DNA from: a virus
Virus record (IMG/VR): IMGVR_UViG_3300046169_000069
Direction: 5' to 3' (one strand)
DNA: 64,000 nt
The notes beneath the pieces were generated by a model. That model saw only the letters and a program-made list of their open reading frames with translations, had not been told where the DNA came from and ran no database searches. Positions 6,001 through 38,052 of this stretch are shown here, one piece after another. How positions within the stretch are numbered: the stretch's first letter is position 1; the number at the start of each line of letters is the position of its first letter. The position numbers and the translations under genes were made by a program.

Positions 6001-9000
6001 ATGCAGTACGATCTGCATCTACCGCAACGATTGCAGCCGCGTTAGTCGCAATGTTTGCAGTGTTAGTTGCAACGTCTGCCGCGATTGAAGCGATGTCAGC
6101 ATCATTTGACTGGATTGCTGCCAAGTTTGCTTCTAGATCTGCACGTAGTTCCTGACGCTTAGCTTCCAAGTAGTTGATCGAGTTGCCTAGACCGGATGCT
6201 GGAATGATGGTGTCAGTAATTGTTTGCGTAACCGTTTCTGCTGGCGAGATCGCAATAAGACGACCGAAATTGCCAGAAGCTGTACTAGAATCACCTCGAA
6301 CTAAACGCTCAGGCGGTTGATCCATATTTGTTAGGTCATAAACAAACATAGCAGTACCGGAAGAACCAGCTACAATCAATCGATTGCTTTCTTCATGCAT
6401 CTGGTATGGGAAAATCCCTAGGTTGTTTTCTGGCGGTGTTATTACTAACGGAGGCAATAATAAATTATTCGCATCATAGATGAAAATAAGACCAACCGAA
6501 CTCGTAATTCCAGGCGTATTGCCCTCAAGTGTGCCTACAATTAATCTTGTGTCTGTTAATGCTATAGAGTATCCAAACTGAAGGTTATTTGTTGCATATT
6601 CTGCAGGCGGATATAACTTAGTATGTGCTTCATTCAGGTTATCTGGGTTAAACAAATAAACAGAACCGTGATTTGGTCCATCTATATCATCTCCATACGC
6701 ACCTACAGCAATACGTGTAGAAGAAACTTCGAACGAACCAGTAAGTTCGCCATTAGCCCAAGAGATAACGTCGGAGTTTTGATCGCCAGAAGTTAATTCA
6801 TGTCCATTGATCAAATGACCATCACTTTGTCGGATATCTAAAACCCAAAGTGCATCAACACCACTATATCTAAATGCACAAAGTTTATCGCCAAATACTC
6901 TCAGTTTATAATCGACTATACTAGCAATATTATATGTACTAGTTCTTAAGTTACTTCCAGATTCCGATAAAGGTTGTTTCCATATAGTATCCGTTCCTGA
7001 AGTTTCGTGCGCATAAATGTAATCTTCTGAAACAGCAAATCCATTTATATTTTGGTTTTCCGCAGTAGCATAAGATTTGGAAGCCGAAGTTATGCCCAGT
7101 ACTAAATCTGCCCATTCGTATCTGTACACTAGATGTCTATTGACATTCCAATTAATGAATAGAGCTTCACTGTTGGCGTCAATATGATATATGTAGTATC
7201 CGCTAAAGTAAACTTTTGCAACCGGAGTAGATGAATCGACACTATCATACACATAGACGTTATGATTATCAGCAGTCGCATAGAACTGACGGCCCGCATA
7301 CTCTACATCAAAGGTAATTGTCTCACCGATGTCTGGAGTAATTAGAGGAACGCCTTCAGCACCAATTGTTGTCTGTAGTGCAGCTAGTGTACCAGTGTTT
7401 GTGTTGATTAGACCCTGTAGAGTGCTGTCTGCATTTGAGTATGCAGTCACGATCTCTTGTAGAGTGTCTAGTGTCTCTGGAGAAGTACCAATGATTGCGT
7501 CTAACTGTGCTTGTAGTGCCGCGTCACCTGTGACGATTGCACTTGCGTTAGCCTGTTCTGCCAACTGAGCACGGACAACTTCTGCGTCTAGATTAGACTG
7601 TACTGCATTAACTTCATCTACTGTTGCACCACTTGCGGTTCGAGCTGCATTTTCTGCAACGATGTCATCGATCTGTGTTTGTAGACCCGAGTCAGCAGTT
7701 GTACGGTTTGAGATTTCTGTATTAAGTGCAGTAGACTGTGCAGAGATTAGAGTTGCTTGTGATGTCTGTGAAGATTCACGAGCAGCAGTTTCTGCAACGA
7801 TCTTCGCATCTAATGCATTGTCTGCAGAGATACGCGCTTGTGTTTCAGCAGTGTCTGCTGCCGCACGAGCGTTTGATTCGTCAACGATTGCACTTGCGTT
7901 AGTTGCATCACCAGCGATACGTGAAGTTTCTTCTGCAGAGATTGCCGCAACACGTGCGTCTGTTTCTGCCTGAACAGCTGTAGAAGTGGCACTATTGTCC
8001 GCCATTTCAGCGTGTAGTTCGTTGATCGCAGCACCAATGGTTTGTGCAGTAGTGTCTAGATTTGTTAGAACAGTTGAAACGTCGATTACGTCTTCATATA
8101 CTGCAGGCACTTCTTGTGAGGCGACCAAAGAATTGTGTCCGGCACTGACGGCGTAAGTTCTAGTGATTGCACCTGAAGTGGGTGTGAGACCAGTAGTGGA
8201 CTCATTATAGATCTTAACAGTTCCGTTGTCATCATTTTGTAAATAAACTTTACCGTTATCGACATCGACGAACTGTTTTTTGGTTGTGGAAATAGACCGA
8301 CCAAGATAAGATACTCCATTAGCATCCCAAGTCCATTCATGAAGATATGCATAACCTGAGACATGAGTAGTAACATATAGTTTATTATCAGTCATATCTA
8401 CATCAAACCCGTAACCTCGCCAGTAGGTATTCAAGTCGTTACTAGGGATAGTAGTATGTAACTCAAAAGTTTGACCTGTTACGTAGTTTTTTAAATTTAC
8501 TCTTTCATAGTTATTATATCCATCTTTGCGCTGAGACCATAAAATGTAATCTCCGCGAATATCAAATCCCCATACATTACCATTCCCTATGAAGGTATCT
8601 TGATTGTTGTATTGGGAAGTTGGGGATATCATATGTACACTGGATGGATTTGCACCATCTGTTACGTCCCAGATAGATATTCTGCCTTCTTCATAAGACC
8701 AAGTGTATCCTATAGCAATCTTAGTTCCGTCCTCGTTCATCTTTAGATAAACTTCTGTAGAACCTATGTTAGGTAGACCGTTATAAATTAGATTTGTATT
8801 AGAGTAAACTTCATTTCCTGCTAAATCGTATACTTTGAATCCTTTTTCAAAAGAAACAAATACATGCGTGTCGTTAGAAACGAGATTATAACCGAACTTT
8901 TGTATCGTTCCGCTAGATTCTAACACATAAGTGTAGTCTTCTGGGCCTGGGTTTGTTGATAGATCGTAGTGATAAACTCTACCAGTACCAGCGGCAGGGA

Positions 9001-11816
9001 TTGCGTCTGGCGCACTAACCCACAAATGGTTTCCTGTTTTCGCCACAGAAGCACCGAACGAACCCTGAGATCCGGATGGACTTGTGATGGTGTGGGTTAT
9101 ATTACCGGAGTATAAAATATCCCCCGTATATACACTAACAGAACCGGACTTAGCAACAGCCATTTCTGCTGGTGTTTCTGCAGTTACTAGGTTTTGACCA
9201 ACAACTGTGCTTACTTCGTGACCTAGGTATGATTCTAGAGATGAAATATCAGATGAGTTTGCAACCATCAACGCCTGTAGATCACCGTCAGCACTTTCGA
9301 ATGCAGCTACGATCTCTTGTAGCGTATCCAAACTTTCTGGAGATGAACCCAAGATCGCATCAATCTGTGACTGAATGCTTGATAGATCTAAGTTTGCTAG
9401 GTCCGAAGACTTCGCTAGTTCTACCCACTGACCAGCGTGTGCAAAGTATGCAGCACCCTCTGCGTGGACGTGTGCAAACATACCGTGATTTGCAGATGCG
9501 TCTGGTAGATCTGCCAATGTAGAGAACAATGGGTGTGTTGCACCAGTTGCTTCGACTTGGTTAATCTGATTTTGTAGATCTGTTTCTGCTGCAGTAGCAC
9601 GTGCAGTTTCTGCAGAGATTGCAGATGCATTTGCTTGTTCAGCTGATGTTGCGCGAGCTGCTTCTGCGTCTACCGCTGCCTGTACTGTTGCATCACCTGC
9701 AACACGAGCAGTTGCTTCTGCAGTGATTGCTGCTTCACGTGCTTCTGCTTCAGCTTCATCTCCAGCAACACGGGCTGCAGTTTCGGTTGAAATTGCACTT
9801 GTCTTCGCTGCGTTATTAGATGATACTGTTGCGCTAAGTGAATCGATTGCACTTTGTAGATCTGAGTCAGCATCTTCACGTTGTTGCTTTTCTGCAGCGT
9901 CAAAGAATGTGCGGTCAGAGACTTCTTGTGTCAATGATGCATTTACTGCTGTAATAGTAGAAGAGTTGCCTATGATTAGACCTGTAAGATCACTATCCGC
10001 ACCTTCAAACGCCGCCACAACTTCTTGAATTGTGTCTAGTGTTTCCGGAGATGTTCCAACGATTGCGTCTAGTTGTGATTGTAGAGCTGATAGATCTGTA
10101 CCAGTTACAGAGTTTAACTGTGATTGTAGATCGGAGACTGCAGCTGCACGTGTTTGTGCTTCTGCTAGGTCAGCAGCAATACGTGCTGATTGTTCTGCGT
10201 CTACCGCTGCCTGTACTGTTGCATCGCCAGCGATACGTGCTGCAGATTCGTCTGAGTCTGCATCAGCACGAGCACTTGCTTCAGCAACGATAGCCTGCAG
10301 CGTTTGCTTGTTCTGCAGATGTTGCGCGAGCAATTTCCGCATCAATTGCAGCACCACGTGCCGTTGCTTCCGCAGCGACTGCATCAGCGATATCCTGAGA
10401 TACTGCCTCACGTGCGCGTACGACTGTGAAGAATAACTTATTGTCACCTTCAGCAATAACGTCTGTGCTTGTTACTGCGATTGGAGTTGCAGTGACACCG
10501 TCGTATACTTCCCAACGATCTTCTAGTTCGTTCCAACGTAGCTGAACTGCAGGTTCGTCACCACGCATGATACGAATACCTGCGTTAAGTACCGGAGCAC
10601 CTGTAGAAACATTGCTGTTTAGATCGATGATATTGTCAGCGACTTTTAAGGTCTGACTGTCTAGAGTTGTTGTAGTACCCTCGACGGTCAAATTGCCTTC
10701 GATGGTTACATTATCTTCAAAGACTTTATCGCCAGTGATTGTACCGTCTGCATTTAAACTGTCAACATATTCTTTTGTTGCAGCGTCTGAAGCATCTACT
10801 GGAGCACCGACATTTTTAACTTTGTGTGTTCCCATATCAACAGCACCACCAAACTTAGTTGGTTCGCCGCCGACTGTAGAAATTGTTTCTCCAACAGACA
10901 TTACTAGATCTGACTTCAACTGGACACTTTCGTCGCCAGCGTTTAGATCAATGTTACCACCACCTGTTGCGCCGAACGACAGGTTCTGACCTGCGTCTGC
11001 GTACATAGTGATTGTACCGCTGTTGTCTTCTAGAATCTTAGTACCGTTAATGTACAGAGAGCCTGGACCGATGTATAGATCTTTCCATACGCGATCTGGA
11101 GAACCTAGTGTGTACTCGTTGTCAGCTGATGGAATTAAGTTTCCTGTCCAACCGTCGCTGTCGTTATACGTGAACTGTGACGCTTGTAGTGCGCTAACAG
11201 CGGCACCACGCGTTGCAGATTCAGCAGCAATTGCCGCAGCGTTCGCAAGTTCTGCTGCAGACGCACGAGTAACTTCTGCATCAATGTTCTGTTGTAGAGT
11301 TACGTCTCCTGCGATACGCTGAGTGGTTTCGATGCCGATAGCGGCAGTGTTTGCACTTAACGATGAGGAGTTTGCAGCTAGAAGTGATTGAATGTCACTA
11401 TCTGCACCTTCGAAAGCGGAAACGATCTCGACAAGAGTGTCAAGTGTTTCTGGTGAAGCGCCTACGATGGAGTCAATTTGAGTTTGTAGTGAATCTACTT
11501 CTGCTTGAGTGTCAGCATTAACTCCTAGTGAGTCAATCTGGGTTTGTAGAGATGCAATATCTGAAATACGTGTTGCTGTTTCGGATGCGATTGCAACTGT
11601 GTTACTGTTTACATCTATGAAAATTTGTGAGTCTGAGTCGACGATAGAACTGCCGGAACCAGTGAGTGCACCTTCATCTACTAGAGATGAGACTGCGTCT
11701 GCGATGGCCCCTGCAACTATAGTACCATCAGCTCGGATTATGACGACATCATTGACGGTTAATTCACCTTTTACGTCAACGCCGTTCTGAATCCTAAACT
11801 TTTTGTTAGTATTCAT
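1..11816 (-). CDS. Giant modular tail-fibre/adhesin-like virion protein (>3900 aa, runs off the left edge); coiled-coil stalk with inserted beta-propeller (FG-GAP-like) and other domains; split by two apparent frameshifts
   Basis: ORFs 10281..11816 and 899..10456, plus an open frame 1..~908, join after removing one base at ~10294 and one at ~910. Ala/Asp-rich heptad segments, 7 SPE[TS]LDT motifs, FG-GAP-like repeats (FGRSVALDDTRLYVGS..GKVEVFD; FGYSLDVEGGKLVVSS..GSLYIYD). Confidence 0.75.
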
Positions 11817-18306: not shown

Positions 18307-19011
18307 TTAAACTGCAGAAATGTCGTCAAGAACCATCTCACGAAATTCTTCAGAAGTCTCTGACCAGTCAAATACATAAGAAACGGTAACACGCCAGTCA
18401 TCTGTAGATGCGGCATGATACATTAACTTTTCTGGTTCGTCATAGTGTCCGAAGTATGCAGCCTTACAAGTCCATACTCCTGGCGTGTCTTGACAGCGAA
18501 CAACTTCTTTCGTTTCTGGGTGAATGTAGTCAAAGTAACCAGAACCATCTTCTGAGTAAGAGAAGATAAGATTAAAACCTGGCGCATTTGCATTGTTATG
18601 CCATGAGATATACCCGCCCGGTGGATAGACTGCTGCAAGTGCATTGTGTTTAACAGACAAGAAGTTCATCATCTTGTCGTTTAGATCACGTAGGTGATGA
18701 GTCATGTCACGTTTAAAGATTGGGTCTGCATCTTTTTCAAACATCTTATGTGCGCGGTCAGATAGTTTGAAGTTATATCCAACCATCTCTTCGGGAAATC
18801 CATCATGTCCCTTTCCCATTGCAACGATGTCATTCATGTATCCTTCACCAACGTAGTATGAACGTTGACGAATATGTTCTGCTGCAGTCAAGTGACAGTT
18901 CTTTTCAAAACCCTGCATAGTATGCAATTTGGCATACTGGTCTAAAACCTCTAGCAACTCTGGGTTATTTACCTCTACGTGCTTTAGATATTGGTCGTTT
19001 ACCTGTGTCAT
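18307..19011 (-). CDS. Putative 2OG-Fe(II) oxygenase / cupin-fold hydroxylase
   Basis: YPPGGYISWHNN..NLIFSYS..GYF..MYHAA....RVTVSY matches the double-stranded beta-helix layout: HxN in place of HxD, distal His, 2OG-binding Arg. Confidence 0.6.
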   Translation of the reverse strand: MTQVNDQYLKHVEVNNPELLEVLDQYAKLHTMQGFEKNCHLTAAEHIRQRSYYVGEGYMNDIVAMGKGHDGFPEEMVGYNFKLSDRAHKMFEKDADPIFKRDMTHHLRDLNDKMMNFLSVKHNALAAVYPPGGYISWHNNANAPGFNLIFSYSEDGSGYFDYIHPETKEVVRCQDTPGVWTCKAAYFGHYDEPEKLMYHAASTDDWRVTVSYVFDWSETSEEFREMVLDDISAV

Positions 19012-19736
19012 ACGATTGGAGTATCCTTGTTCAACCCAGCCGAGAAGTGTCTTAAAATTACGGGTCCCGTCTCAGGTCGTGTTCTTGCCCAATTGAGGGC
19101 ATTGTAATAATTCCACCTCAAGTCATCATCAAAGATACCAACCTTGAGGTCCTTATACTTTTCTTCCTTCTCAGTTAACCACCAAAGCGAGAACTGATCC
19201 CAAGACTTGAGACTGTCTGCATACCCTTCTGGCCACCAAGAGTCGTTCATCTGTCTGAATGTCAAGTCCCACCAATCGTCCATGAATTCACGTACAATCG
19301 GTTTACTCATATCATACAAACAAACGCCACCGCATAATGTAAACTTCGCCATACCCTCTGGTGTAGAGAAGTCGCGTTCTGCGTAGATGTAATCTCTATC
19401 ATCTGTTAACGCAGAAAACACCACATCGTGGTCTTTCATCTCATCCCAAACTTTTACAATGTCTTCGTGCTCACATTCCATATCAGCATCAATGTACATT
19501 GTCAAGTCATACGGAGACTTTGCCATCCCCCACAACTTCGCACGGTAGTGATCATCACAAAAGATGATATCATCCGCGACTTCGCGACCACGATCATCAA
19601 TAAACCGTTCTTCGGTCACTAAACAAATCTTGCAATCCTCATAGTAATCTCTAATGGATTCGGCAAGATTCAATGCGTACAAATAAAAGTTGCGTTTCTT
19701 AGACGCAACTAACAAAAATCCTTTACTCTTTTCCAC
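19008..19736 (-). CDS. GT-A fold glycosyltransferase (GT8/GT77-like)
   Basis: SPYDLTMYIDAD (DxD), LCGGVCLY and WDQ motifs. Confidence 0.75.
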   Translation of the reverse strand: MEKSKGFLLVASKKRNFYLYALNLAESIRDYYEDCKICLVTEERFIDDRGREVADDIIFCDDHYRAKLWGMAKSPYDLTMYIDADMECEHEDIVKVWDEMKDHDVVFSALTDDRDYIYAERDFSTPEGMAKFTLCGGVCLYDMSKPIVREFMDDWWDLTFRQMNDSWWPEGYADSLKSWDQFSLWWLTEKEEKYKDLKVGIFDDDLRWNYYNALNWARTRPETGPVILRHFSAGLNKDTPIV

Positions 19737-20185
19737 TGTCTTCGGCCTCTAGTTGTTCTTGCAGAATCATAATTGAGTACATATCTACTTCAATCTTTGA
19801 CTTTGCCCGACGCAGTTTAGCCTTCAACTTGCGGTTCTTAGAGTTCTTAATCTCTTCAACCTCAAACGCTTCTAGTTTGTAGTTGAACAGTTTTTCAAGC
19901 TTACGTGCCTTTTGATGTTCTTCTTCACGTATCTTGTCTTCTTCAGCTTCTGCCTTCTTGCGAACAACACGATTCAGATGTTTCCTTATCAATCGCATCT
20001 TCACCTAGAGAATCAATCACTTCTTTAAAAAGTTCGTTCTCACTACCGTCCTTATCATGACGATGTAAAAACATTTGTTGGCGCGTCACTCTACCAACGT
20101 CATCTTCAAGTTCTAGAATACAGTTTAGTTCTTTCTTTTCGTCTGTTTCCCAGAACGCATTATCCATCCAACGCTTATAACTCAT
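19723..20185 (-). CDS. Hypothetical protein (~153 aa, charged helical C-terminus), one apparent frameshift
   Basis: 19943..20185 joins 19723..20004 after removing one base at ~19974; overlaps the start of the glycosyltransferase. Confidence 0.6.
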
Positions 20186-20232
20186 TAAGTATCTCCAAAG
20201 AGTTCAATTCAATTCAAATGTATATAGTGTAG

Positions 20233-20260
20233 AAATAAAACGGGTCAAGTGAATGACCCG
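20233..20260 (-). terminator. Putative intrinsic terminator after the hairpin-repeat gene
   Basis: cgggtca-N6-tgacccg stem followed by ttttattt on the minus strand. Confidence 0.55.
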
Positions 20261-20270
20261 CATTTCCTAT

Positions 20271-20299
20271 ATTATAACACAGTACGGTTGATTATGCAA
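20271..20299 (-). promoter_or_regulatory. Possible sigma70-type promoter TTGCAT-17-TATAAT
   Basis: Minus strand ttgcat aatcaaccgtactgtgt tataat, overlapping the upstream stop codon. Confidence 0.35.
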
Positions 20300-23200
20300 C
20301 ACGTACGTATAATGTATATGTTTCAGTAACCTCTGTAAGCGTATCTGAAATCGTTGCACCCACGTAGTTACCCAAGAAAGATCTTGCATAGTTACCAACG
20401 TAATCTCGAGCATAGTTACCACCAAATGTACGTGAGTAATTACCTGTAAAGTCTCCAACATAGGCAGAGTCACGATTGCGTGAGTATGCACCAGAGTAGG
20501 CCGAGTTACGGACACGAGCGTATGCAGATACACGTACGCGTGAGTAGTTACCTACGAAGTCGCGTGAGTAAGTGCCAGTGTATTCACCAGTAAATGTACG
20601 TGAATAATCACCGACATAGTTGCCACCGAAGTCGCGAGTATATGTGCCAGTGTATTCACCAGCAAAGTCACGGGAGTAGTTACCTACATATTCCCCAGCG
20701 AAGCCGCGTGAGTAGTTGCCCGCATACTGACCAGAGAAGTCGCGAGTATATGTGCCAGTGTATTCACCCGCGAATCCACGAGCATAGTTACCTACGAAGT
20801 CGCCGACAAAGTCACTTGCATAAGCCCCAGTGTATTCACCAGCAAATGTTCTTGCATAGTTACCAGTAAAGTCTCCAGCAAAATCACGTGCATAATTACC
20901 AGCAAATGTTCTTGCATAGTTACCAGTAAATGTGGCATTATATGTTCCCGCATACTCACCAACAAATCCACGTGAGTAAGCACCAGTATATTCACCAACG
21001 AAGTTGTTGTTGTAAGTACCAGTGTATGCGCCTGTGTATTCACCTACGAATGTTCGGTTATAAGTTCCTGCGTATTCGCCAACAAATCCACGTGAATAGT
21101 TACCCGCAAAGTTTCCACCAAAGTCACGTGCGTAGTTTCCTACGTAGTTTCCACCGAAGTCTCCAACAAAATCACCGATAAAGTTACCAGCGAAGTTACG
21201 AGAGTAGTTACCAGTGAATGTGCGTGAGTAGTTGCCTGCAAAATCTCCAGCGAAGTCACGCGAGTAGTTACCAGTGAATGTACGTGAATAGTTACCAGCA
21301 AAGTTTCCTGCAAAGTTAGTCACACGATCACGAGCATATGTTGATGCGCGGTTGCGGATGTATGCAGAAACACGAGTCACGACATATGCAGAGTAACGAG
21401 TACGAGTAGATGTACGAGTATACTCACCAGTAAAGTTACCGGCATATTCACCCGCGAATCCACGAGCATAGTTACCTACAAAGTCACCTGCATAGTTACG
21501 GGCGTAGTTACCGATAAAGTTACCAGCGAAATTTGTTACTCTATCACGAGTGAAGTTACCTATGTAATCAGTAATTCGTGTACGTGCATACGAAGAGTTG
21601 CGATTACGCGTAGATGTACGTGTTGATGTACGAGTAAAGTTACCTGTGTAATCAGTAATTCGTGTACGTGCATAAGCTGAGTAACGTGTGCGTGTTGAAG
21701 TAATTGTCGATACACGTGTGAAGTTGCCTACGTAGTTTGTTACGCGATCACGAGCGTAAGCTGAGTTACGTGTACGAGTATAGTTTGTTGCACGAGTTCT
21801 TGCATAAGCACTGTAACGAGTACGAGTAGATGTGCGCGTAGATGTACGAGTAAAGTCACCAACATAGTTAGTAATACGAGTACGTGAGTAGGCACTGTAA
21901 CGAGTACGTGTTGAAGTACGTGTTGACGTACGAGCATATTCACCTACGAAGTCACCAGCATAGTATCCAGTACGTGTGTAGTTACCTGTATTGGTAAAGG
22001 TCTGAACACGATTACGAGTGAACGCACGAGCGTAGTTACCTGTGTAGTACAATGTACGAGTGTAGTAACCAGTACCTGTACCCGTACGTGTTGACGTACG
22101 GCTGTAATTGCCTTCATATGAGAACGGACGACTACGAGTATAGTTTCCTACAAAATCACCAGTAAAGTTGGTTACACGATCACGTGAGTAGTTTCCAGCG
22201 TATGAGAACGCACGACTTCGATTATACGTAGAAGTACGGGTGCGCGTATAGTCGCGAGAGTAGTTTCCAGCGTAAGAGAATGCACGACTGCGAGTATAAT
22301 CCTCTGCGGATACACGAGTTCGGGCATAGTCCCCAACAAAGTTGCCGGTAAAAGAACCAGCCGTGCCTTGAGTAACCAACCCATAGTAATAATTTTGAAA
22401 AAGTTGCATTTGGAGAGTGCCTCTTGAATAGGTCACTCCATTGTGCGTAATTGAAGTTGCGTTGGCGTTAGTGCTGGTCGCAATAGTCGTAGCGTTAATA
22501 ACAACAGAAGCTCCCGCAGTACTCTTTAACCAATATGTGACATATTGGGCGTACTGAGTAGTACTTCCCGAATTAACAGAAGTTCGGGTTGATGTGCGTG
22601 CGTAGTTGCCTACATACGAAGTACCGCCCGTAACTCCAGTATAGTTTCCTACAAAGTTTCCTGTAAAAGAACCGCCAGAACCACTGTAAGTAACGCCGTA
22701 ACGAGTTTCCAGCCCAAAGTTCTCTCGGAAAGTGCCTCGATTATACGTGACACCACCATTGGTTATTGATGTCATGGTGGTTCCTTGCGCTATATAGCGA
22801 CAGAAGAACCGCCCACATAAACAATTACAGTACTGGATTCATTATCAATAACCCAACCATCTGTCACTGTGTTGAAAGGACTCTCCGAATAATCGTCAGT
22901 AGCACCACCAGAACCTGTAGAAACGCGAGTAGAAGTTCGGGTGAAATCTGTACTAGTTGGAGTTCCAGTGTAGTTACCTAAATAAGATCCCGTTCGGTTT
23001 CGAGTAAAGTTTCTTGAATAGTTTCCGCCGAAGTTGCGCGAATAATTACCCAAATAAGATCCAGTACGAGTACGGCCGTAGTTACCTATAAAGTTGCCTG
23101 CGTAGTTGACATCTGGTTCGCGAGTATAGTTACCCAAATAAGATCCGGTTCGTGTACGCGCATAGTTACCTACGAAGTCACCTGCGTAGTATAGAGTACG

Positions 23201-25697
23201 AGTATAGGCTGGGGTACGTGCATAGTCTGCAGCATAGTTACGTGCATAGTTGCCAGTGAAGTCGCCGACATAGTACAGTGTACGCTGATAGTTCAAAGTA
23301 CGTGTTGAAGTACGTGTTGATGTGCGTGAATAGTTTCCTACAAAATCACCAGCATAGTTACCAGCAAAACCACGAGAATAGTTGCCTACAAAGTCGCCAG
23401 TAAATGTAGTCGCGTAATTACCTACGAAATCACCACCGTAGTTGCCTGCGAATCCTCGAGCATAGTTGCCTACAAAGTCGCCTACATAGTCTCCGACATA
23501 ATTTCGGGCGTAGTTACCAATAAAGTTACCAGCGAATGTGGTTGTATAGTTGCCTGTGTAGTTACCTGCAAAGTCACCAGCGTATCCACGAGCATAGTTA
23601 CCTACGAAATCTCCGGTGAATACTGTAGTGTAGTTACCAACGAAATCGCCACCGTAGTTGCCCACAAATGTACGTGCATAGTTTCCTACGAAATCTCCGG
23701 TGAATACTGTTGTATAATTGCCAACAAAGTTACCAGCGTAGTTAGTAACACGGTCACGTGTGTATGCAGACGCACGAGTACGTGTTGACGTACGTGCATA
23801 AGCTGAGTAACGTGTTCTCGCAGAAGTACGAGTAGAAACACGAGCATAGTTACCTACGTAGTTTCCTGCAAATCCGCGTGAGTAGTTACCTACGAAGTTA
23901 CGCGAATAGTTGCCTTGGAAGTTACGTGAGTAGTTTCCAATAAAGTTGCCAGCAAAATCGGTCACACGATCGCGAACATATGAAGAAACACGGCCACGAG
24001 TAAACTCACCCGTGAAGTTAGTCACACGATTGCGTGTGTAAGTAGAAACACGGGCACGAGCATAAGCATTTGCAAAGTTAGTGACACGGTCGCGAGTGTA
24101 GTTAGTGATGCGGGTTCGTGTGTAATCTGCAGAGTATGCTGATGTGCGTGTACGAGTTGAAGTTCTTGTATAAGCTGAGTTACGAGTACGTGAGTATGTT
24201 CCGGCATAAGCTGATACACGGTTTCGTGAATATGTACCAGAGTATGTACCTGTGTATGAAGAAACACGAGTACGAGCGTAAGTGCCTGAATAGGCAGAGT
24301 TACGAGTACGTGCATATGTACCTGCATAAGCAGAAACACGACCACGAGTGTATGCAGAAGAACGAGAACGCGTGAACGTACCAGTAAAGTTCTGTACGCG
24401 ATTACGTGTGTAAGTAGAAACACGTGCGCGTGAGTAAGTTCCCGCAAAGTAACCAGTAAATGCAGTTAGTCTATTACGAGAATATGTAGAGATACGGTTA
24501 CGAGCATACGCGCCAGAGTACGCAGATGTGCGTGTGCGCGAATATGTTCCAACGTATGTTGAGACACGGGTTCTCGCATAAGTGTCTGAATACGCGGATG
24601 TACGAGTTCGTGAGTAGGTTCCTGTATAAGAGGAAACACGTGTACGAGTGTAATCAGCCGAGTAAGTAGAAACACGATTGCGAATATAAGTCCCTTCATA
24701 TGAAGATGGTCGCGTACGAGTGTACTCTCCGACGAAATCTCGAGAATAGTTACCTACGAAATCTCTATTATATGTTCCTGTGTAGTCTCCAACAAAGGTG
24801 CGGGAGAATGTATCTACACTATTACGTGTGTATGTTGAAACTCTATCGCGAGTGTAAGCCGAAATACGCGTACGTGCGTATGATGAGTTACGTGTGCGAG
24901 AGTATGAACTATTTACAATAGTACGTCGGGTGTTAGTTGCATCACCAACAACAGACCATGTTCCAGGCAGTGTTGGTACACCTTGCGCAGCTGAACGGAA
25001 CTGATAAGATCCGATCGCACCGGCCGTCGCACGGAGGGATTTGACACGTTGACCAATAGTATATTTGATCTGATCATCCGACATTTCTTTGAATCCGTCA
25101 AAGTTGGATGACCCATCGTAACAAATAGCAACGGGACGCACTGCGTTAACCACAGGCATCGTTACACGTTGATAGATGTTGTAATTTGTTACTGTACCAT
25201 CACCGTGTGTGTCTGAGAAGACATTTGCGAGGAAGACCGTATAGTCTGCGCCAGGTGATGTACTAGAAAGTTTGAATGTACCGACATAGTCATTCTGGAC
25301 CATGTTACTGAGTACACGACTTGCAAGATTATCCAAATCTGGATCTACCATTTCGTAGAAGCCTGGATTTGGGGCCTGAGTCATAATAACCCACAGGACG
25401 AACAAAATCGGCACCAGTTTCATCTGCAACACCGCCCACCTGACGTAGAGGTGTGGTTACAGTTGTAGATGTGATATTAGTAATTGGGTGAGTGCCCGCA
25501 GATTCATTAAAATACGCGTCCGTAAATGAACCAATATTAACATCACCAGTTAAACTGATATCTCCGACTTCACCAGCAGATGCATCTGCTAATGCTTGTC
25601 CCACCGCATAAGAAAGATAGTTCTCTTCTAGCGGTGTAAATTCCTGTAGGTCACCATTAGTATTTTTAATTTTTAGTGGGATACTAGATGCTGACAC
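20292..25697 (-). CDS. ~1800-aa tetrapeptide-repeat fibre protein with self-complementary arms (predicted giant beta-hairpin), two apparent frameshifts
   Basis: ORFs 25329..25697, 22790..25432 and 20292..22775 join at ~25373 (YYDSGP|NPGFYEM) and ~22792 (SVAI|AQGTTMTSIT). N-terminal ~260-aa globular region, then ~320 [YFRS]xxx units. Two late promoters upstream. Confidence 0.75.
20367..24904 (-). repeat. Degenerate 12-nt coding repeat array (YxRx, RxSx, FxGN, STRT, YxGT units)
   Basis: Strict 4-residue periodicity; recurring DNA words tagttacc and tacgag. Confidence 0.9.
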
Positions 25698-25746
25698 AAT
25701 AATTGCTCTCTTGTAAAAGTTGAAATTAACGGTTAATAACGTACTT

Positions 25747-25754
25747 TATTTATA
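25747..25754 (-). promoter_or_regulatory. T4-type late promoter TATAAATA
   Basis: tatttata, 50 nt upstream of the GTG start at 25697. Confidence 0.8.
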
Positions 25755-25793
25755 ATAAAAAAAATGTGCGGAAACCAAAGTCTGCGCACATTT
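25755..25793 (-). terminator. Putative intrinsic terminator
   Basis: aaatgtgcg..cgcacattt inverted repeat with a long U tract on the minus strand, downstream of 25817. Confidence 0.5.
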
Positions 25794-25801
25794 CGTAAAA
25801 A

Positions 25802-25809
25802 TATTTATA
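25802..25809 (-). promoter_or_regulatory. T4-type late promoter TATAAATA (second copy)
   Basis: tatttata, intergenic. Confidence 0.6.
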
Positions 25810-25816
25810 CCAACTG

Positions 25817-26284
25817 TTACTGTGGTGGAGTTGGCCAGTTAATGTCAGTTAAATTCTCAATTCCGTCAAGATTTTCTGTAATATCACGCAACTCTTGACG
25901 ATAACCTGCCCATGCATTCTTCATATCGAGTGATAGTGGGGCGTCTGGAATTTGCGTCCAATCTGTTCTCATCAACTCATTGTTGCGAGTCTGACGAATT
26001 TCGATATGTAAAGATTGTAAATTGATCTTCCAAGAATGACCGTCACGGTAAGCGTGTTCGTTCGGAGGTTCGCCAATATCAACGAAAGACTCTGACGATC
26101 TGTCATAAAAATTTCTGCGGACGAACTCTAATGGGGTAAGAGAGCCCATGCGTTCATCGCCAATCAATTCGAATCTACTAGACCCGTCTGGTTGTAAACC
26201 TAATTCAACTTTTAAAGTTGCCGGTTCTATCTGTAGGTTCATAATTGAACCGTTTGATTCATTAATATGTGCTAACCAACTCAT
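25817..26284 (-). CDS. Tail fibre assembly chaperone (Phage_tail_APC-like C-terminus)
   Basis: IRQTRNNELMRTDWTQIPDAPL..WAGYRQELRDI..INWPTPP. Confidence 0.85.
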   Translation of the reverse strand: MSWLAHINESNGSIMNLQIEPATLKVELGLQPDGSSRFELIGDERMGSLTPLEFVRRNFYDRSSESFVDIGEPPNEHAYRDGHSWKINLQSLHIEIRQTRNNELMRTDWTQIPDAPLSLDMKNAWAGYRQELRDITENLDGIENLTDINWPTPPQ

Positions 26285-27108
26285 TCTACTATACTTCCTC
26301 TAAATATTACGAAATCTGGTGATCTTTGACTATAAGTAATAGATCCAAAAATACCTGTCGTTGTTGTTGATTGAAATCCATACACTCCTGAGGCAATTGT
26401 TACTGGGCTCGAGGCAGTGCTTGGTTGATAATTACCACTTCCTGTTGGTGCGAAAATTAACGCTCTACTAGTTGATGAACTTGTTAAAAGAGAAACCCCC
26501 GTTGATTGAGAGATATCATCGCCTATACTATAAAAAAAATCAAAAGAAGAGTTTAAAAGATCTGACCTTACAACCGAACCGTTGTTAGTAATTAAAGCAA
26601 CAGAGCCTGGTGGATAGTATTCTTCTAACTTAATTGTTTTTTCTGAGGTCATCGCTCTGGAATCGAACTGAACTCTATTTTCTTTATTTATTATCTGTAG
26701 TCCATAGTCTCCGGTAGGGGTGACATCGGATGACGGTTTCAAAACAATATATTCTAGTGATCCGACTCCAGAAAAAGTGATTTGAGATTCTTTATACCAT
26801 ATGTTTGGTCTAACGCCTAACAACAGGGTTGTGGGTGTTGGGTTTCCGTTTGCGTCCTCTTCATAAAGAGGATTGGGTTGGCCACTATCATATTCATCAT
26901 AAAAAAACTTAATGAAATCATGCGGAAAAGTTGGTCCCCTTACCGGAGTGTGTCGAACGAACACAAGGTCTCTTGCTAAATCAACATCGACTGTAGTCTT
27001 AGACCCAAATCCATGTTCAACTGCTACGTAGTTAGACATGTCTGCTTCTGTATCAGCAATTACAATGTTATTAGATGATCCTGATTTTATTTCTAATCCA
27101 TATGACAT
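26281..27108 (-). CDS. Tail-associated protein with two YGL-type repeats
   Basis: MSYGLEIK and GDYGLQIINKENRVQFDSR; coupled to the chaperone gene. Confidence 0.55.
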   Translation of the reverse strand: MSYGLEIKSGSSNNIVIADTEADMSNYVAVEHGFGSKTTVDVDLARDLVFVRHTPVRGPTFPHDFIKFFYDEYDSGQPNPLYEEDANGNPTPTTLLLGVRPNIWYKESQITFSGVGSLEYIVLKPSSDVTPTGDYGLQIINKENRVQFDSRAMTSEKTIKLEEYYPPGSVALITNNGSVVRSDLLNSSFDFFYSIGDDISQSTGVSLLTSSSTSRALIFAPTGSGNYQPSTASSPVTIASGVYGFQSTTTTGIFGSITYSQRSPDFVIFRGSIVE

Positions 27109-27109
27109 A

Positions 27110-27991
27110 TTAGAACCTTAACATATAATATGTGTAATTAATTGTACGGGCATAGTTAAAAGTTAATCCATATTCATCTTGTGCCGTTATTAAAACGCCG
27201 TTATTTGTTCTGGTGTAGTTTATAAATGACGTTCTGAAGTAAATATCTATAACAGATCTATTGGTTAATGTCCACCCAAAACTTCTAAGATCTAGTTCGT
27301 ATGTTGCGCTTGCAACATTTGCGGGGATAGTTATGCCGACTGTGCCTATCTCATTAACTAAACTTATTACTCTTTGACCACCGCCCCAGACTTCATTGCC
27401 ATTAGCATTTAATATTTGTATTCCATAGTCTCCCTGAGACACATCGACAATCGTTGTGGGGTCTCCTAAATCTACAGGGTTAATTTCGCTCTGTCTGGAT
27501 ACAGTATAAAACTTGTTTGAAGACATTGATGTCGAAGTCTGAGAACCTCTGGTGTAGATATACTCACCAACTTCAACTTGAATCGCCCCTTCGGATATCA
27601 GTCCGTTAAAAACTTCATCGCCGACCCAATTGATGACAACAGTTTTAACTCCGTCGCTTGAGTAGTCGGCTGGTTCATACCAATAGGATGATCCACCACC
27701 ACCTCCACCACCACTAGTCGTTTCGCCAGTAACTGCATATTGAACAGTTGTGAGGCCAGAAAAAGATTCGGTAGTTTCTCTGGTATACGTCACTCCCCCG
27801 AAACTATATTGAGTATCGGTTGTCGCAATTAAGTCCGTACCAACTTCATCTACGACAATAGATCCATTATATTTTATTGTCGTAGTGTATACCGGCACTG
27901 CGGAACCGCCATCAAATTGATATGTGGTAGTTATCTGCCAATAGTTATCTGTTAACGCAGTCCCGCCACCGATATTATCATCACCGATCAT
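27110..27991 (-). CDS. Tail-associated protein with two small beta domains and a YGI-type C-terminal domain
   Basis: Domains ending GGVTYTRE and GEYIYTRG joined by poly-Gly; GDYGIQILNANG. Confidence 0.55.
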   Translation of the reverse strand: MIGDDNIGGGTALTDNYWQITTTYQFDGGSAVPVYTTTIKYNGSIVVDEVGTDLIATTDTQYSFGGVTYTRETTESFSGLTTVQYAVTGETTSGGGGGGGSSYWYEPADYSSDGVKTVVINWVGDEVFNGLISEGAIQVEVGEYIYTRGSQTSTSMSSNKFYTVSRQSEINPVDLGDPTTIVDVSQGDYGIQILNANGNEVWGGGQRVISLVNEIGTVGITIPANVASATYELDLRSFGWTLTNRSVIDIYFRTSFINYTRTNNGVLITAQDEYGLTFNYARTINYTYYMLRF

Positions 27992-31673: not shown

Positions 31674-34600
31674 TTAGTGATGAAAGACTAGAGCATCATC
31701 TTCTGATTGCCAAGCAGGGTTTACTGATCCACCCGCATCTCTATATTCATCTGTGTATCGAATACCGATCGGTATATCCAACCAATCAAAAGTCTCACCA
31801 CTGTGAGTAGCGGATAGGTTGACACTATAGTTACCTGAAGCTTCAGAAGTAATCGTGTTCACAAACTCTGTACCATAGTTCATAGTAACAGTACCCGTAG
31901 TAGACCATTCCGGACCAAATGTGTATGTTATTGGATAGTAGTGTGTGTTATGACCTTCTGGTCTTTCGATTCCGTAAGTTATGAATCTAACATCATGTTG
32001 AGTACCATTTACAGATGAATCCGTTTCAATATATATTGGTTGAACTGTTGCTTGACCTTCTTCTTCTGAGGTCATTTCTGGACTATATGGATAAAGTGCG
32101 TGGAAGTCTCGACCACTCTCCCAATATACGCCATCATGGGCGACAAGCTACAACGATACCTTCGTCTGTATCAACCGTCATACGATCTCCAACAGGCAAG
32201 TCATAATTGAACGTGAGTGTTTGAATGATATCGCCAGCTGGTTCATACAAATCACCACCAAATGCCTCACTAGTAGGTGGAGACAATCTAATGTCCATCT
32301 CTACAGTACCAGTATATGGTGTGGATTCACTAACACCCGACATATCAGATTCAACTAGAATGAACCCTGTGCTACCCATTTCGCCCCTTTCAGAGACCGA
32401 TAAATTAGTTGCAAAACTGTCACCGACATGATCGTAGATTGTTTTGTTTCGAAGTACCGACACACCGTCACTTGTGTGAGACATGATCGGATCATTCGGA
32501 TCATTATCATTAGGTATTTCATAATCGTTGATTTTTTTCAGGGTGCTTGTAATTCCAAATCTTTCTAGATAGTCAAAGAAGTTATTAGCTGGACCGTCAG
32601 TAAATTGTTGAATAGGTCTATCCAACCACTGACTAGTATGCACTAGAGTTCGTGTTCCAACATCCGTAGCGTTTACTTGAGAATAGACTTTCAACGATCC
32701 ATCAAGGTGGAACTCAAGATTGAATCTGACTCCTCTAGGCTCCCAACCAGATGTACCTGACCACTCTCTACCCACATCGCGGCTACTTGCTGATATTGTT
32801 GGAACGGTCTCAGCGAAAAGCGAACTTATGTCTCTGACCTCATTGGTCTCGCTTCCGGTGTCGGTATTAGTTTCGCCGCCGGTGTCGGTATTAGTTTCGC
32901 CGCCGGTGTCGGTATTGGTCTCGTTACCAGCATCTGTTCCAGAATTCGGAGTCGTGCTAGAAGAGGTTGTAGTAGAACTTCCATTTCCACCAACTCCAGT
33001 CACTAACGATATTGTACGCAAATCTCTAATAGTAGGAGACTTAGAAGAGTTCTTAGCGTGCATAACAACTTTAACTTGGAACGCGGTAAACTGATCTAAC
33101 TCTGCAGTATACTCGTACTGACGGAAGTTTTGGGGATTATCATCTTCTGGTAGAGGTTTATCTATTTCTACCTTAATCCAATTTGTGATAAAACTTCCAC
33201 TGTTATCTGTAGTTAATAGTGCGTCTTCGTCTGCAGCAACCTTAACATATACTTCGAAATCAGAGCCTGGTGGACGATTCGCTGAGAACATAACCTTCAG
33301 AGATTTAGACGAATCGTTGATAGTCACTGCACTTGATATGTGTTGTGCTGCGTATCCAAATGTGGTATAATCAGGCGTATCCGCCGTCGCGTTATAAACA
33401 TCATAATCAACGACATTTTCTAGTGCAAGAACAGAAACTCTCTGTAGATCGATGACCGGAGAAACTTTAGTATCACTTGTCGTCATCTGAAGATTGAACT
33501 TCATTGTCTCATTACCACTCGCGTTCTCTGAAGAAGCGACGATGCTTGGTTCACCGTTTATGTTGTAGTCATTTAAGAATACTTGACGTGCGTTCGCCAG
33601 ACTACTTGGTAGACCATAACTGAACTGACCTAGACTACGACTGTCGTTAGAAGAGTTACCGCCATAAGACTTTGCCTTTGCATCGAATAGTTTTGCACTG
33701 ACTCCTGTCTTGTTAGGAATGACACTTTGTATCTGCGGTATAAAACTATCATAGTATACTTGTTGTGATGCAACGACTGTATCACCACCACCGACACCTG
33801 ACATAGGTGCAGACGCGGACACTTCAATTGTATATCCGTCCCAGTTCACACTCTTGATGTCAAATGTTCCGTTGAACTCTGAGGCAGCAACACCACCGAT
33901 GGCATTCGCAACACCTGAGATCGCAACGTTGTCACCCCGACTGAAACCATGCCCTTCGTGATAGACCTTGACAGATGTAGAACCTGAAGTAGTCTCCAGT
34001 GGATCGGTTTTCAGTGCAACTTTTGGTAGAGGCGCATTGTCGAGAACTAACGCGCCCGATGTAGAGAAATCGGCTCTATATAGATCAAACATCAAATCTT
34101 TAGATTGATCTGGTGACCAAGTATATCCATTCTGTGACAAGAACAATGAACCAGCAGCCGCCTGTCGGGATACTTTATCTTCACGACTACCAACAACAAA
34201 CTCATATGTTTCCGCAATGTATATGTTATACTCAACAGACTCACTGAGTATTGCTATAGCATACTCTTCGCCGCTTGTCAAGTAAATCGGTTCATCGAAT
34301 TCTACGGTTGTTGCATTTTCCTGTACCTCTGACATAATAGTATCAGAACTGAAAGGAGTAACTGTTATGTCGGCTGGATCAACAAAAGTGTTAGACCCTG
34401 GCACAATACGATTTGTTGGCACACCGCTTTCGACTGCACGAATCTGAACCTGCAGAGGTACAGTCGCATCTTTACTTTCTAGGTAAAGATTGACCTTGGT
34501 TAAGAATAGTCCGTTAGGGTTCTCTATTTGATCTACAAAGAACGTTTGTGCGAGCGGATCACTACGACCCCCATCTCTTTCAACTACGCGTGTGGTGCGA

Positions 34601-37600
34601 ATGGTTTGTTGTACATCGTCAATAGAACCTGTTGATGAGTAAGATGCGCGAGCAGATACTGTTGATTCGTTTTCATTATTAACGCTAACATCAAGTAATT
34701 TAAATTCTTGTTTTCCTGTACGGAACTTCAACGTATCTGTGTTAGGCAAGAAGAACGAACCAACCAGTTTTCCAGACCCATCTGTCTGTAGTGCAGATGG
34801 TCCACCTAGATCAGTTGGGTACTCAGTCGCAGATGCGTACTGGCTTCCAAACTCTTGTGGGTCGTCTGCGAATCGTTGAGTCGTCGCTTCTTGACGTACC
34901 CAAGAACTTACATCTTTGTCACCGAAGAATGCGAACATCTTAGTATTAGGCCGCAGACCCCTAGCAACAAAGTTGATTCTACGAGAACGCATGTACGGAG
35001 TAACTTCTTCTCCTGCGACCTGTGTTCCCGCATAATCAAAGACAGTGAGGCTCATTGATGCATCTGCACCCGATATGTATCCCGTCTGAGTGTATCCAAG
35101 AATACCAGCGCCGCCTCCTCCATAGTCCCACAAATCATCTCCATACTGATCTTGTATGTAACCATCACCAGTACGTTCAATCGTTTGCATCTGTGGAGTT
35201 AAGTCTCGTGTTTCGATCCACTCATCCGAAGATGGTGATAGTTCCATCGTACCCACTTGACTTACAACTGCGAACGGGTTAACGTTCACAATGTTGGTGG
35301 CTAAATCCTGCAATATATGTGAGGTGCTGGTGAATGGTAGTGTCACCAAGTCGCCATTTTTCACGACAGCGTCAACGTTGTCCGAACTATAAGATAGTCG
35401 AACAGAGTTCTGACGGAAAGATGGTTTCAATTGACCAGTTGGATCTTGAGACGCTCGATAGTTAGGATTGTTGACATCCGAATAAAGATATGAGGTGAAA
35501 TTATCAGCAACAATACCCGTCTTTATTATTTCCGCCCCAGTATCTGGATCTATGATAGGCAAGTTGACGGTAGCTGACTCTAGTAAGTTGAGTGTTGTAA
35601 TTTCAAGATTTTCAATACGTTTCTCTAGTTCACCGATATCTTTCATAGTGAAACGTTTGTTTGGAATATAAACACTTGATAAATCTGATCTATCAAAAGT
35701 ATATGGGTTCAATCGGAACTTGTACATTGCCATTGAACCTGTAGGAATTTGTGGTTCACGTGGGCTGACCGCCGATTCTCCTTGAATGACTTGTAACTCA
35801 CCAAACCCAATACCATCTCGACTGTCTATTGCGTTAGCGACAAGAATATCAATACGTGGTAGATAGTATTCAACATCATCAATTGAAATTGCAGATGCGT
35901 TCTGAGGCAGTGGTGTCTTCACCACGAACTCACGTAAATATGGCCCTAAGAAATCTCTGGTAGGTCGGAAATCAAGTACATCAAGTAGACAGACAATTTG
36001 TCCCGAGACTGTCGTGTACTTCGGAATATCTTCGTATGCATCATCCACATAAGATGCTGCGCAGAAGTATCCTTCTTTATCTTCGTGTGCATAATAATCA
36101 TACACTACTTGTACGTCTTTGGCAACACCATCATAAGGAATTACGTATCCAGATTTCAGATATGCAACTGACCGATCATAAAAGTTGTCTCTTTGACCAC
36201 CATCAAAAGTGAACTGGTGTGTAATGTCTTCTGCATCGTCCCACGGGCCAGTTTCGGCTGATGGTCGATACTTAACCGACTTCAACTTGATACCATCAAC
36301 ATAGTCCAAGAAAAGTGGACGACCTTGTTGATCGGATACAGTCACACTGCCGTATTCTACCGATTCTGTAAGCGTCTTTGATCGGGGAGTGATATTAGTC
36401 TTTTCTACGTAATATGCAATAGTATATGATTGACTAGGAGTGAGACCAGTATACTTACCAGTCATATCAGGACTTATCGATAGGATCTCGCCAGCCTCTT
36501 CAGCGATTATCCACTGCGACTGTTCTACACCTGATAACGTAAGTTCACCAGCACCATCTGCTTGCGTAGTTGTTGTAACCTGCGCAGTATAGTTTGCGGT
36601 GATGCTGTCTTTTGTCGGTGTCGTTCTTGGTAGTTCAAATAGTAGGCTATTATCAGCAGCTTCGTGAATAACGCTATCAACCATAACGATCTGTGGGCTA
36701 TTAGGGTCGAGTGTTGGGTCTTCTAAGATTGTCGCCTCAGAGAAACTGTGATAACCACCGCCCTGTTTAGGGTCCATGCGAATGTTAAAGATGTATAAAC
36801 GAACGCCTGTCGAGTCACGCTGTACAGCACGTACGTTACAGTAACCAATGTAATCACCCGCAGATGATGTTCTTAGGCGTTGATGACCAAACGATGCAAG
36901 TCGGCCGAAACCTTGTGACCCTGAAGCGCCTTCTTCGATGTAAACATAGTTACCGAATGTCGCTGGTACAGGTTCGTTAAGTTTCTCTAGTGTATCTCGT
37001 GCCTTTGGTACAGTAATGTCCGTAGCACCGATGTCTAATCGATATCCATCTACATAAGCAATGCCTTCACTCACATCTAGGTTTAGATTGTCCGCATCCT
37101 TATCTTCAAAGATTGCAGTAAACTTTTCGACAACATAGTTACCTGACTCTTCTTTCGTTCGTTGAGCCATTAATTTATTGATTCGATTGTATGCATCAAA
37201 GTTAGACACTTCACGAGTGATTTTACCATCTACAATCCGTGCGATGAATATAAAATTGGACTCTTCTTCTGGAAACTCTACGCGACGAGCATTAAACAAC
37301 TCTCGCGTAGTAGGAATTAGTTTGATCTGATATCGATGTGCGCCAGGAGCAGTGTGATCCGGAACCTGTCCTTGATTGTCATAGAGCTGTTCGTCATCAC
37401 CTTCTGTAACAATTTTCTGTTCTATTCTAAATCCAAAGTCTTCCTCTGGGGTATCACTGTACTTAGAAATAAAGGTGTCGCCTTTCTCTAAGTATACAAA
37501 GTGTCCCTGTATAAAAAAGTCTCCCGAAGAAAAGTGTGCTTTGGTTCCACGACCAGCAGCAGGAATAGGATCTGAACTGTCATCAATCACTTTTAAGTTG

Positions 37601-38052
37601 ACAGATACATTATCTACACGGGTTATGATTTCTTGAGTTGATACGCGAGGCGCTTTTTCCGTATCGGTGACCGCAGAGGTATCTGTGTATTGGACATACA
37701 GAGTCTCTGGATCGGTGTTTGTGGCGGGAACGATTTCAACTATTTTAAATTCTATTGTCCCGTTGGTCAACGTCACGCCAAATAAATCAGGCGTCGTTAC
37801 ACTGACAGAGTCCAACCGAATATACTCGACCTTGTTGTTTACTGTCGCACCGCCCGGATTGACCATCGCACCTTCTTTAAAGATGTTCTGACCAAATCGT
37901 GCAATCTCTTCTTGAATGATTGTTTGTTGTTCAATTAATTCACGAGCTTGGAGCGCACGGCCGGAGTTGTATAGAACACGATAGTAACCATCATTCGCAT
38001 CATAAAAATCGCGATATGTTTCTCGAAACGTTTTGCTTGTAAAATCTGTCAT
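31674..38052 (-). CDS. Large baseplate-associated structural protein (DUF4815/VrlC-like) with a C-terminal extension
   Basis: YYRVLYNSGRALQAREL, APGAHRY, RTKEESGNY, DFRP, VNPFAV, DPLAQTF and GSLFLSQNG motifs. Removing one base at AGCT ~32145 fuses 32134..38052 in frame with 31674..32075. Confidence 0.75.
32853..32925 (-). repeat. Three 24-nt tandem repeats encoding an ETNTDTG[G/S] linker
   Basis: ccggtgtcggtatt(a/g)gt repeated at 24-nt spacing. Confidence 0.85.

Follow-up and report, generated by a model that had tools for sequence, protein, structure and literature searches.

A tandem tip unit at the turn of a putative fold-back tail fibre of a T4-like cyanophage

The tips of tail fibres determine phage host range, and to our knowledge the receptor-binding parts of marine and freshwater cyanophages are largely unknown. 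We analysed a 64,000-nucleotide (nt) stretch of viral DNA, IMG/VR record IMGVR_UViG_3300046169_000069 (hereafter referred to as the window). Positions 20292–25697 on its minus strand are best explained, from sequence, as one tail-fibre gene of a T4-like cyanophage (Kyanoviridae-type) with an intact protein of 1800 residues. Taken together, the evidence is best explained by a single fibre gene whose product has fold-back arms, a duplicated tip unit set at a junction, and tip domains that serve as host-recognition heads, a combined reading that we consider moderately probable.

Residues are numbered as in the intact 1800-residue protein of a 160-kb viral record, G001, which is 98% identical to the window over positions 19000–25970. 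The G001 protein comprises an N-terminal domain (1–255), an ascending arm (256–917), the tip (918–1126), a descending arm (1127–1779) and a C-terminal tail (1780–1800). The chain would thus run from a 255-residue N-terminal domain, the presumed virion attachment end, through an ascending arm of ~660 residues to the tip, and back through a descending arm of ~650 residues to the 21-residue tail. The gene and its open reading frames (ORFs) lie in the window as follows:

25817..26284, minus strand: upstream tail-fibre assembly chaperone gene (Phage_tail_APC, PF16778, E 8e-15).
25375..25697, minus strand (window ORF 25329..25697): first piece of the fibre gene, ~residues 1–108 of the N-terminal globular domain.
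22790..25432, minus strand: ORF-A, 880 codons; remainder of the N-terminal domain, then the ascending arm, stem1a and tip domain 1 up to its residue 43.
22946..24931, minus strand: ascending arm, residues 256–917, in 4-residue units with aromatics in one phase.
22922–22945, minus strand: stem1a, FTRTSTRV, an Arg/Ser-type flank ahead of domain 1, conserved across tip-domain homologues.
22668–22921, minus strand: tip domain 1, with a modelled all-beta core at residues 931–1006; interrupted by a frameshift in the window.
22791..22796, minus strand: TATATA run of the coding strand, TATA in G001; the added TA shifts the frame and makes a TAG stop.
22644–22667, minus strand: stem1b, FTGNFVGN, a Gly-type flank behind domain 1, kept in homologues as (Y/F)TGNF.GN.
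22617–22643, minus strand: 9-residue linker YTGVTGGTS joining the two tip units (window translation).
22581–22616, minus strand: stem2a, YVGNYARTSTRT (window translation).
22353–22580, minus strand: tip domain 2, core at residues ~1047–1110; an insertion relative to every homologue found.
22317–22352, minus strand: stem2b, FTGNFVGDYART (window translation).
20358..22316, minus strand: descending arm, residues 1127–1779, complementary without gaps to the ascending arm at i+j=2042.
20292–22775, minus strand: ORF-B, 827 codons, starting MTSITNGG, 14 nt past the ORF-A stop in the -1 frame.
20292..20357, minus strand: C-terminal 21-residue tail and stop codon, conserved in Phage C48C1.

An initial annotation, made from the letters and ORF translations, had described two small domains at the turn, each clamped by short flanking units. 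Translation of the minus strand at 22317–22945 recovered every element of this tip in the described order and sequence, and the proposed motif W ... TSIT.(N/G)GVTY.RGT ... YG(V/L) is present in both domains. The domains are homologous: their 100-residue units, flanks included, align by BLASTP at 35% identity (E 5e-16). They are somewhat larger than the ~60 residues first proposed, the confidently modelled cores spanning 76 and 64 residues. In the alignment, domain 2 and its flanks form a clean insertion relative to all homologues, and in the window the ORF boundary cuts domain 1 in two. Full matches to a hidden Markov model (HMM) of the tip occur twice in G001 alone, once in at least 13 relatives, and never twice in 93 metagenome proteins. 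The usual arrangement in the family is a single tip module at the centre of complementarity; G001 has two tandem modules instead. Judged from these alignments, the whole unit of flanks and domain is present twice in tandem in the lineage of G001 and the window. The double tip is a variant within the family, one tip domain being usual in relatives. In a tip-domain tree, domain 2 sits on a long branch, and duplication in place followed by divergence is indistinguishable from import by recombination.

The window presents this gene in pieces. ORF-A ends in ...GGSSVAI followed by TAG (22790–22792), and joining it to ORF-B, as had been suggested, is supported by the relatives: the gene is a single frame in G001 and C48C1, and the tip domain is uninterrupted in every homologue. 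One 1800-residue frame spans the junction in G001, where the sequence reads GCT ATA GCG against GCT ATA TAG CG in the window, the TA added to the TATA run being the sole difference there. Across the ~8.4 kb shared with G001, the window carries four insertions, each lengthening a short run. A C at ~25374 (CCC to CCCC) detaches the first ~108 residues of the fibre gene, where G001 keeps ...GPNPGFYEM continuous; an A at 19974 (A to AA) splits a 153-residue downstream gene into ORFs 19943–20185 and 19723–20004; and a further A lies at 17691 (AAA to AAAA). Because the TA is one of these four run extensions, we read the ORF split as an assembly error or a recent mutation; comparison with G001 suggests that it is probably an assembly or sequencing artefact and less likely a recent mutation. 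Nor do we take it for a designed two-protein system. Programmed frameshifting at the junction was ruled out, as the sequence lacks a slippery heptamer and departs from G001 by an insertion of 2 nt. If the insertions were real, the gene would be truly split or dead, leaving either two polypeptides that associate non-covalently to rebuild domain 1 and the hairpin, or a fibre without function. The sequence as given does contain the stop, a plausible AAGGA-type ribosome-binding site and an ATG. We nonetheless consider a split or dead gene quite unlikely: four extensions of short runs (CCC, TATA, A and AAA) in 8.4 kb are a pattern typical of assembly error, three of the four (two in the fibre gene, one just downstream) break frames that are intact in so close a relative, and the further break near 25374 would sever the N-terminal domain as well.

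The two arms total 1315 residues, 96% of which belong to ten residue types, with no His, Lys, Cys, Met or Trp. Aromatic residues keep to one phase of the 4-residue frame (118/124 in one arm and 123/135 in the other). We slid the reversed descending arm gaplessly along the ascending arm and counted the resulting pairs. The register i+j=2042, covering 660 positions, gave 78 Arg–Gly, 2 Arg–Arg, 11 Gly–Gly and 85 aromatic–aromatic pairs, compared with 40–59 Arg–Gly, 14–34 Arg–Arg and 15–28 Gly–Gly pairs in the remaining in-phase registers. A shift by one unit abolishes the signal, so the fit is at the level of units and goes beyond Arg-rich blocks facing Gly-rich blocks. The antiparallel pairing code ascribed to the arms in the initial annotation is thus borne out by this register, and it is conserved across the family.

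A pair matrix was learned from 3862 pooled pairs of 14 viral-contig relatives, with in-phase shifted registers providing the expected counts. Pair counts were:

Phe–Arg: 356 observed, 133 expected.
Tyr–Tyr: 441 observed, 263 expected.
Gly–Arg: 365 observed, 244 expected.
Arg–Ser: 115 observed, 56 expected.
Arg–Arg: 17 observed, 122 expected.

Arg–Tyr, Gly–Gly and Phe–Tyr pairs were likewise rarer than expected, and the rule in these 14 proteins goes beyond Arg opposite Gly. The code does not treat Phe and Tyr alike, Tyr standing opposite Tyr and Phe opposite Arg. The depletion of Phe–Tyr and Arg–Tyr pairs argues for specific side-chain contacts and not for a general hydrophobic periodicity. 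A DNA palindrome as the source of the protein complementarity was rejected, as we found just one 21-nt imperfect inverted repeat.

Tandem 84-nt (28-residue) duplications occupy mirror positions in the arms, at window positions 23588–23760 and 21545–21734. They correspond to residues 646–703 and 1321–1384, the latter overlapping the predicted partner range 1339–1396. A duplication in one arm is apparently matched in the other, with the register retained. Between G001 and C48C1, 206 orthologous pairs include 13 two-sided changes against 7.8 expected, a small sample; among them are Val–Thr to Thr–Val, Ser–Ala to Ala–Ser and, twice, Leu–Ser to Thr–Asn. These two-sided changes are suggestive. The sequence gives good support to a hairpin in which the chain folds back over ~660 residues under a residue-pairing rule. 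Both arms are unbroken series of 4-residue units and would run antiparallel, matched residue by residue, with Tyr opposite Tyr, Phe opposite Arg, and Arg opposite Gly or Ser on one face. Because the arms are antiparallel under the pairing code, the chain would fold back on itself, making the tip the point farthest from both termini. We infer direct physical pairing of the two strands from this complementarity; by analogy with other phage fibres, the fibre is probably a trimer.

Relatives were collected by a pattern scan of viral contigs, which gave 28 loci, and by a search of a large protein collection with a descending-arm segment, which gave 93 further clusters of unnamed or 'hypothetical' proteins, almost none with a Pfam domain. 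The family as considered here comprises the G001 protein, C48C1 WJE88074.1, P0004, L011–L037 and P0008–P0099, and the G001 protein shares its long arms of 4-residue units, restricted composition and antiparallel self-complementarity. About 20 of the viral-contig relatives, nearly all of the full-length ones, show one outstanding register (z 5–7) with Arg–Arg pairs near zero. A gapped antiparallel self-alignment with the learned matrix reached z>=4 over segment shuffles in 25/26 independent metagenome proteins. By these alignments, complementarity generalizes across the family, and perfect gapless arms are the property of a subset.

Comparison of homologues, proposed in the initial annotation as a check, showed that the tip domain varies among relatives in both number and type. 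The centre holds one domain homologous to domain 1 in L011, L013–L015, L025, P0004, P0006 and C48C1, small domains of other kinds between the same conserved flanks in L018–L020 and L037, larger inserts in L026 and L034, and almost nothing in L021, L029/L031, L024 and L033. In L021, L029 and L031, which lack a globular tip, the turn is built of RTLYY-type and RTRTATG-type units, and a second strong register in two of these three suggests bulges or a second hairpin. Within the tip module of relatives, conservation is highest in the flank columns, with STR.ST before the domain and (Y/F)TGNF.GN after it. The distant single-tip homologue P0004 (contig L038) has 1293 residues, with shorter arms and ~230 extra C-terminal residues ending in a Pro-rich tail; its gene is flanked on both sides by Phage_tail_APC genes, with a Phage_Tail_Tip (PF09327) gene upstream.

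Against 50,697 phage records, tBLASTn with the N-terminal domain and one arm matched Phage C48C1 only, and tBLASTn with the tip found nothing. An exhaustive HMMER search with the tip recovered a single genuine fragment, P0006; its two other hits were repeat proteins and spurious. Phage C48C1 (Kyanoviridae) is the sole isolate that shares the N-terminal domain (77% identity) and the C-terminal tail. Its homologue (L040; OQ984149.1, 141011–151054) is a 3347-residue 'hypothetical protein' encoded behind a tail assembly chaperone gene. The clearest hairpin of this protein, centred at ~residue 1332 and bearing one tip domain, covers part of the chain only, and the sequence may contain additional hairpins or branches; L011, with more than 3800 residues, may likewise contain additional hairpins. 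A local anti-diagonal stem finder applied to such extra hairpins proved too noisy, as any Arg-type stretch fits any Gly-type stretch.

How the duplicated unit sits on the hairpin depends on the pairing of its flanks. As first annotated, the flanking units fit the Arg-opposite-Gly rule: with the learned matrix, 918–925 with 1010–1017 scores 10.5 and 1027–1038 with 1115–1126 scores 13.2, each over 10 residues. Cognate windows of the main stem average 9.7 and non-cognate in-phase windows 3.7; with 10% and 2% of non-cognate windows reaching 10.5 and 13.2, respectively, this evidence is modest for such short stems. The main-stem register ends at ~Tyr909/Tyr1133. Beyond it lie the short, atypical connectors TGTPTSTD, YTGVTGGTS and RVSAED, which would be the Gly/Pro/Thr-rich or acid-rich connectors of a junction. 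Each copy of the unit would keep its own paired flanks, producing a three-way junction with two heads per chain. We favour this arrangement because the conserved flanks of single-domain relatives must pair together, and a duplicate is expected to keep that geometry; on sequence grounds, a three-way junction with each tip unit closed by its own flanks is probable. The earlier proposal of one mini-stem per domain thus gains support from homology, but not from structural models, in which the flanks stay below a predicted local distance difference test (pLDDT) score of 55, nor does it stand alone in pairing score.

Structure prediction of the tip, the check envisaged for this proposal, gave confident models of both cores (pLDDT ~90) but not of the mini-stems. 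AlphaFold2 applied to the whole tip with 38-residue arm stubs modelled the core of domain 1 confidently (931–1006, pLDDT >90), while stems, linker, domain 2 and arm stubs fell below pLDDT 50. A second job, on domain 2 with aligned homologues, placed its core at ~1047–1110 with pLDDT ~90 and gave low-confidence flanking strands. From these shallow alignments, both cores came out as small all-beta domains whose strands follow one another in the same order. The flank strands of the domain 2 model (1036–1040 and 1114–1118) are symmetric about the code-predicted register 2154, a low-confidence feature that we take as a hint only. A two-chain prediction of arm segment 612–671 with its cognate 1371–1430 scored 0.00 with an uncertain partner fold, and is evidence neither way.

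Several of these results weigh against the reading of a branched, fold-back fibre. The stems, linker and main-stem segments fall below pLDDT 50–55, so that junction and ribbon lack structural-model support; the gapless test across the metagenome family was weak (median z 3.1); and P0004 has large extra C-terminal domains, a possible receptor binder in some members. Moreover, pairing outer flank with outer and inner with inner scores 21.2 (9.3 + 11.9) against 23.7 for own-flank pairing. As both pairings score like true stem windows, the code alone cannot choose between a junction and a stacked form, in which FTRTSTRV and FTGNFVGDYART extend the main stem, FTGNFVGN and YVGNYARTSTRT form a terminal beta-hairpin capped by TGGTS, and the two domains bulge sideways on opposite strands. 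The individual scores of 9.3 and 11.9 are within the range of true stems, and the low-confidence AlphaFold2 model has two short strands flanking the GG of the linker. The stacked form requires, however, a one-residue register shift relative to the main stem (2041 versus 2042) and a Gly–Gly pair, and in all single-domain relatives the conserved flanks must pair around the domain, an arrangement that each copy is expected to match. We therefore regard stacking as rather unlikely. Complementarity could also act between chains, the N-terminal arm of one pairing with the C-terminal arm of another in an antiparallel or swapped oligomer in place of an intramolecular hairpin, with the tip as a mid-fibre knob. 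Sequence complementarity by itself fits pairing within and between chains equally, and the Gly–Phe packing of T4 gp37 runs between subunits (PMC6957217). Such an oligomer seems very unlikely to us: the centre of complementarity coincides with an inserted globular domain in most relatives (3/4 in the metagenome test), the short flanks directly beside the domain follow the code, and an antiparallel head-to-tail oligomer would put attachment domains at both ends.

The tip domains are probably receptor-binding heads, candidates by virtue of their position, their variability, the adjacent chaperone gene and analogy. G001 and C48C1 diverge most in the tip: identity is 52% in tip domain 1 and 69–78% in the N-terminal domain, near-tip arms and tail. 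The heads would act as host-recognition elements, with the adjacent Phage_tail_APC protein as the likely assembly chaperone. The domains might instead be folding nuclei, or docking sites for Phage_tail_APC, that start the zipping of the hairpin, with host recognition residing in the arms, in another fibre or in C-terminal domains. Relatives that keep the arms with almost no globular tip (L021, L029/L031 and L024), the extra C-terminal domains of P0004 and other fibre-like genes in the window all fit such a role. We consider it unlikely, given that the tip is the part that varies most between close relatives and comes in several unrelated types, the pattern of a host-range determinant, and that the receptor-binding residues of T4 gp37 lie at the turn of its fold-back needle (PMC6957217).

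The needle and tip of T4 gp37 (domains D10–D11) are, by analogy, the closest known system. In gp37, residues 811–881 and 1010–1026 form the collar and residues 882–1009 the needle, with the receptor-binding residues at the turn; Gly is needed opposite bulky Phe (G921/F970), and the trimer depends on chaperones for its formation (PMC6957217). Both phages are T4-like, and both fibres would combine an out-and-back chain, a tip at the turn and chaperones. At the sequence level, the G001 protein matches this fold-back through gapless antiparallel complementarity centred on its tip. The differences are considerable. Needle arms of ~60 residues compare with ~660 in the G001 protein; the His-x-His iron core of gp37 contrasts with the complete absence of His from the 1315 arm residues of the G001 protein, which has three His in total; gp37 is without the 4-residue repeat, the family-wide pair code and a duplicated tip; and no sequence or profile similarity between the two proteins was found. 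For the duplication of a domain together with its flanks, the precedent is Alteromonas phage A5 gp8, in some relatives of which a small knob domain and its conserved flanking residues were duplicated by insertion (PMC10579305). A5 gp8 differs in forming a trimeric fibre of conventional design, which runs N-to-C towards a C-terminal head and carries the knob in series along the shaft instead of at a hairpin turn, and the sequences are unrelated.

The models also hint at a resemblance of the tip domains to gp38-type adhesins (PF05268), small modules that recognize receptors at the distal end of T4-like fibres. In the ESM Atlas, the domain 2 model aligned with a viral cluster that has PF05268 in 80% of its members (template modelling score 0.59 by query, 93 residues, root mean square deviation 3.2), and the domain 1 model gave a weak BFVD match to a gp38-domain protein (probability 0.69). 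The PF05268 HMM did not match G001 even at E 10, and gp38 exists as an independent protein and not within a fibre chain; on these models, we treat the resemblance as a lead only. In fold searches of the PDB, the top hits were unrelated proteins, at Z 2.9 with domain 1 and Z 4.0 with domain 2; Foldseek found no match at E<=0.001 in the PDB or in BFVD, and the best score in an ESM Atlas feature search, 0.75, was uninformative. Sequence searches of the PDB with the N-terminal domain, the tip profile and one arm found nothing relevant; no fibre family in Pfam or PHROGs matched the G001 protein, and Pfam gave no match to 11 tip domains. In the literature on repeat motifs, fibres with 4-residue repeats and Kyanoviridae fibres, we found no account of the fold-back architecture or the code.

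An analogy can be drawn with RNA stem-loops and three-way junctions, in that antiparallel strands are held in register by a positional rule, duplications occur at mirror positions and a branch is possible. In the G001 protein, pairing would depend on how well side chains match in size and in cation-pi contacts within a beta-type ribbon, and, as a difference from RNA, the protein code is degenerate, so that short stems are not uniquely specified. That a branched, RNA-like junction arose by duplication of a 'stem plus domain' under a modular pairing code, and represents a new structural principle for fibrous proteins, is a tentative idea and more doubtful than the junction itself.

The genomic setting agrees with a tail fibre. 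The PF16778 chaperone gene stands beside the fibre gene in the same order in C48C1 and is also found next to the homologue P0004, a fibre and chaperone arrangement that lies within a block of baseplate genes. Neighbouring genes match T4-type families: a gp6-like wedge, a gp48-like tube cap and fibre PHROGs. The near-identity to G001 stops abruptly upstream of ~25970, in or beside the chaperone gene, and the alignment beyond (~25970–27500) is rich in insertions and deletions; this comparison suggests that recombination set the edge of the fibre module at ~25970. Elsewhere, the window has further structural ORFs of very large size (3185 and 1972 codons) and a GC-rich stretch (0.52) at ~42–44 kb, the loci concerned being 899–10456, 32134–38052 and 41366–43561.

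The family points to an unusual way of building a fibre, from a single chain that would fold back over hundreds of residues under a readable pairing rule, with a module at the turn that can be exchanged. Should the ribbon be real, its arms would be ~200 nm long at ~3.3 Å per residue, an estimate for extended beta structure, and electron microscopy would reveal them. As the double tip demonstrates, the module and its flanks can be duplicated, which offers a simple route to two heads per chain and, with them, to higher avidity or two specificities. If the pairing code holds true, it would supply ready rules for the design of protein rods and forks that are long and rigid, and the underlying fold-back architecture may be a new structural principle.

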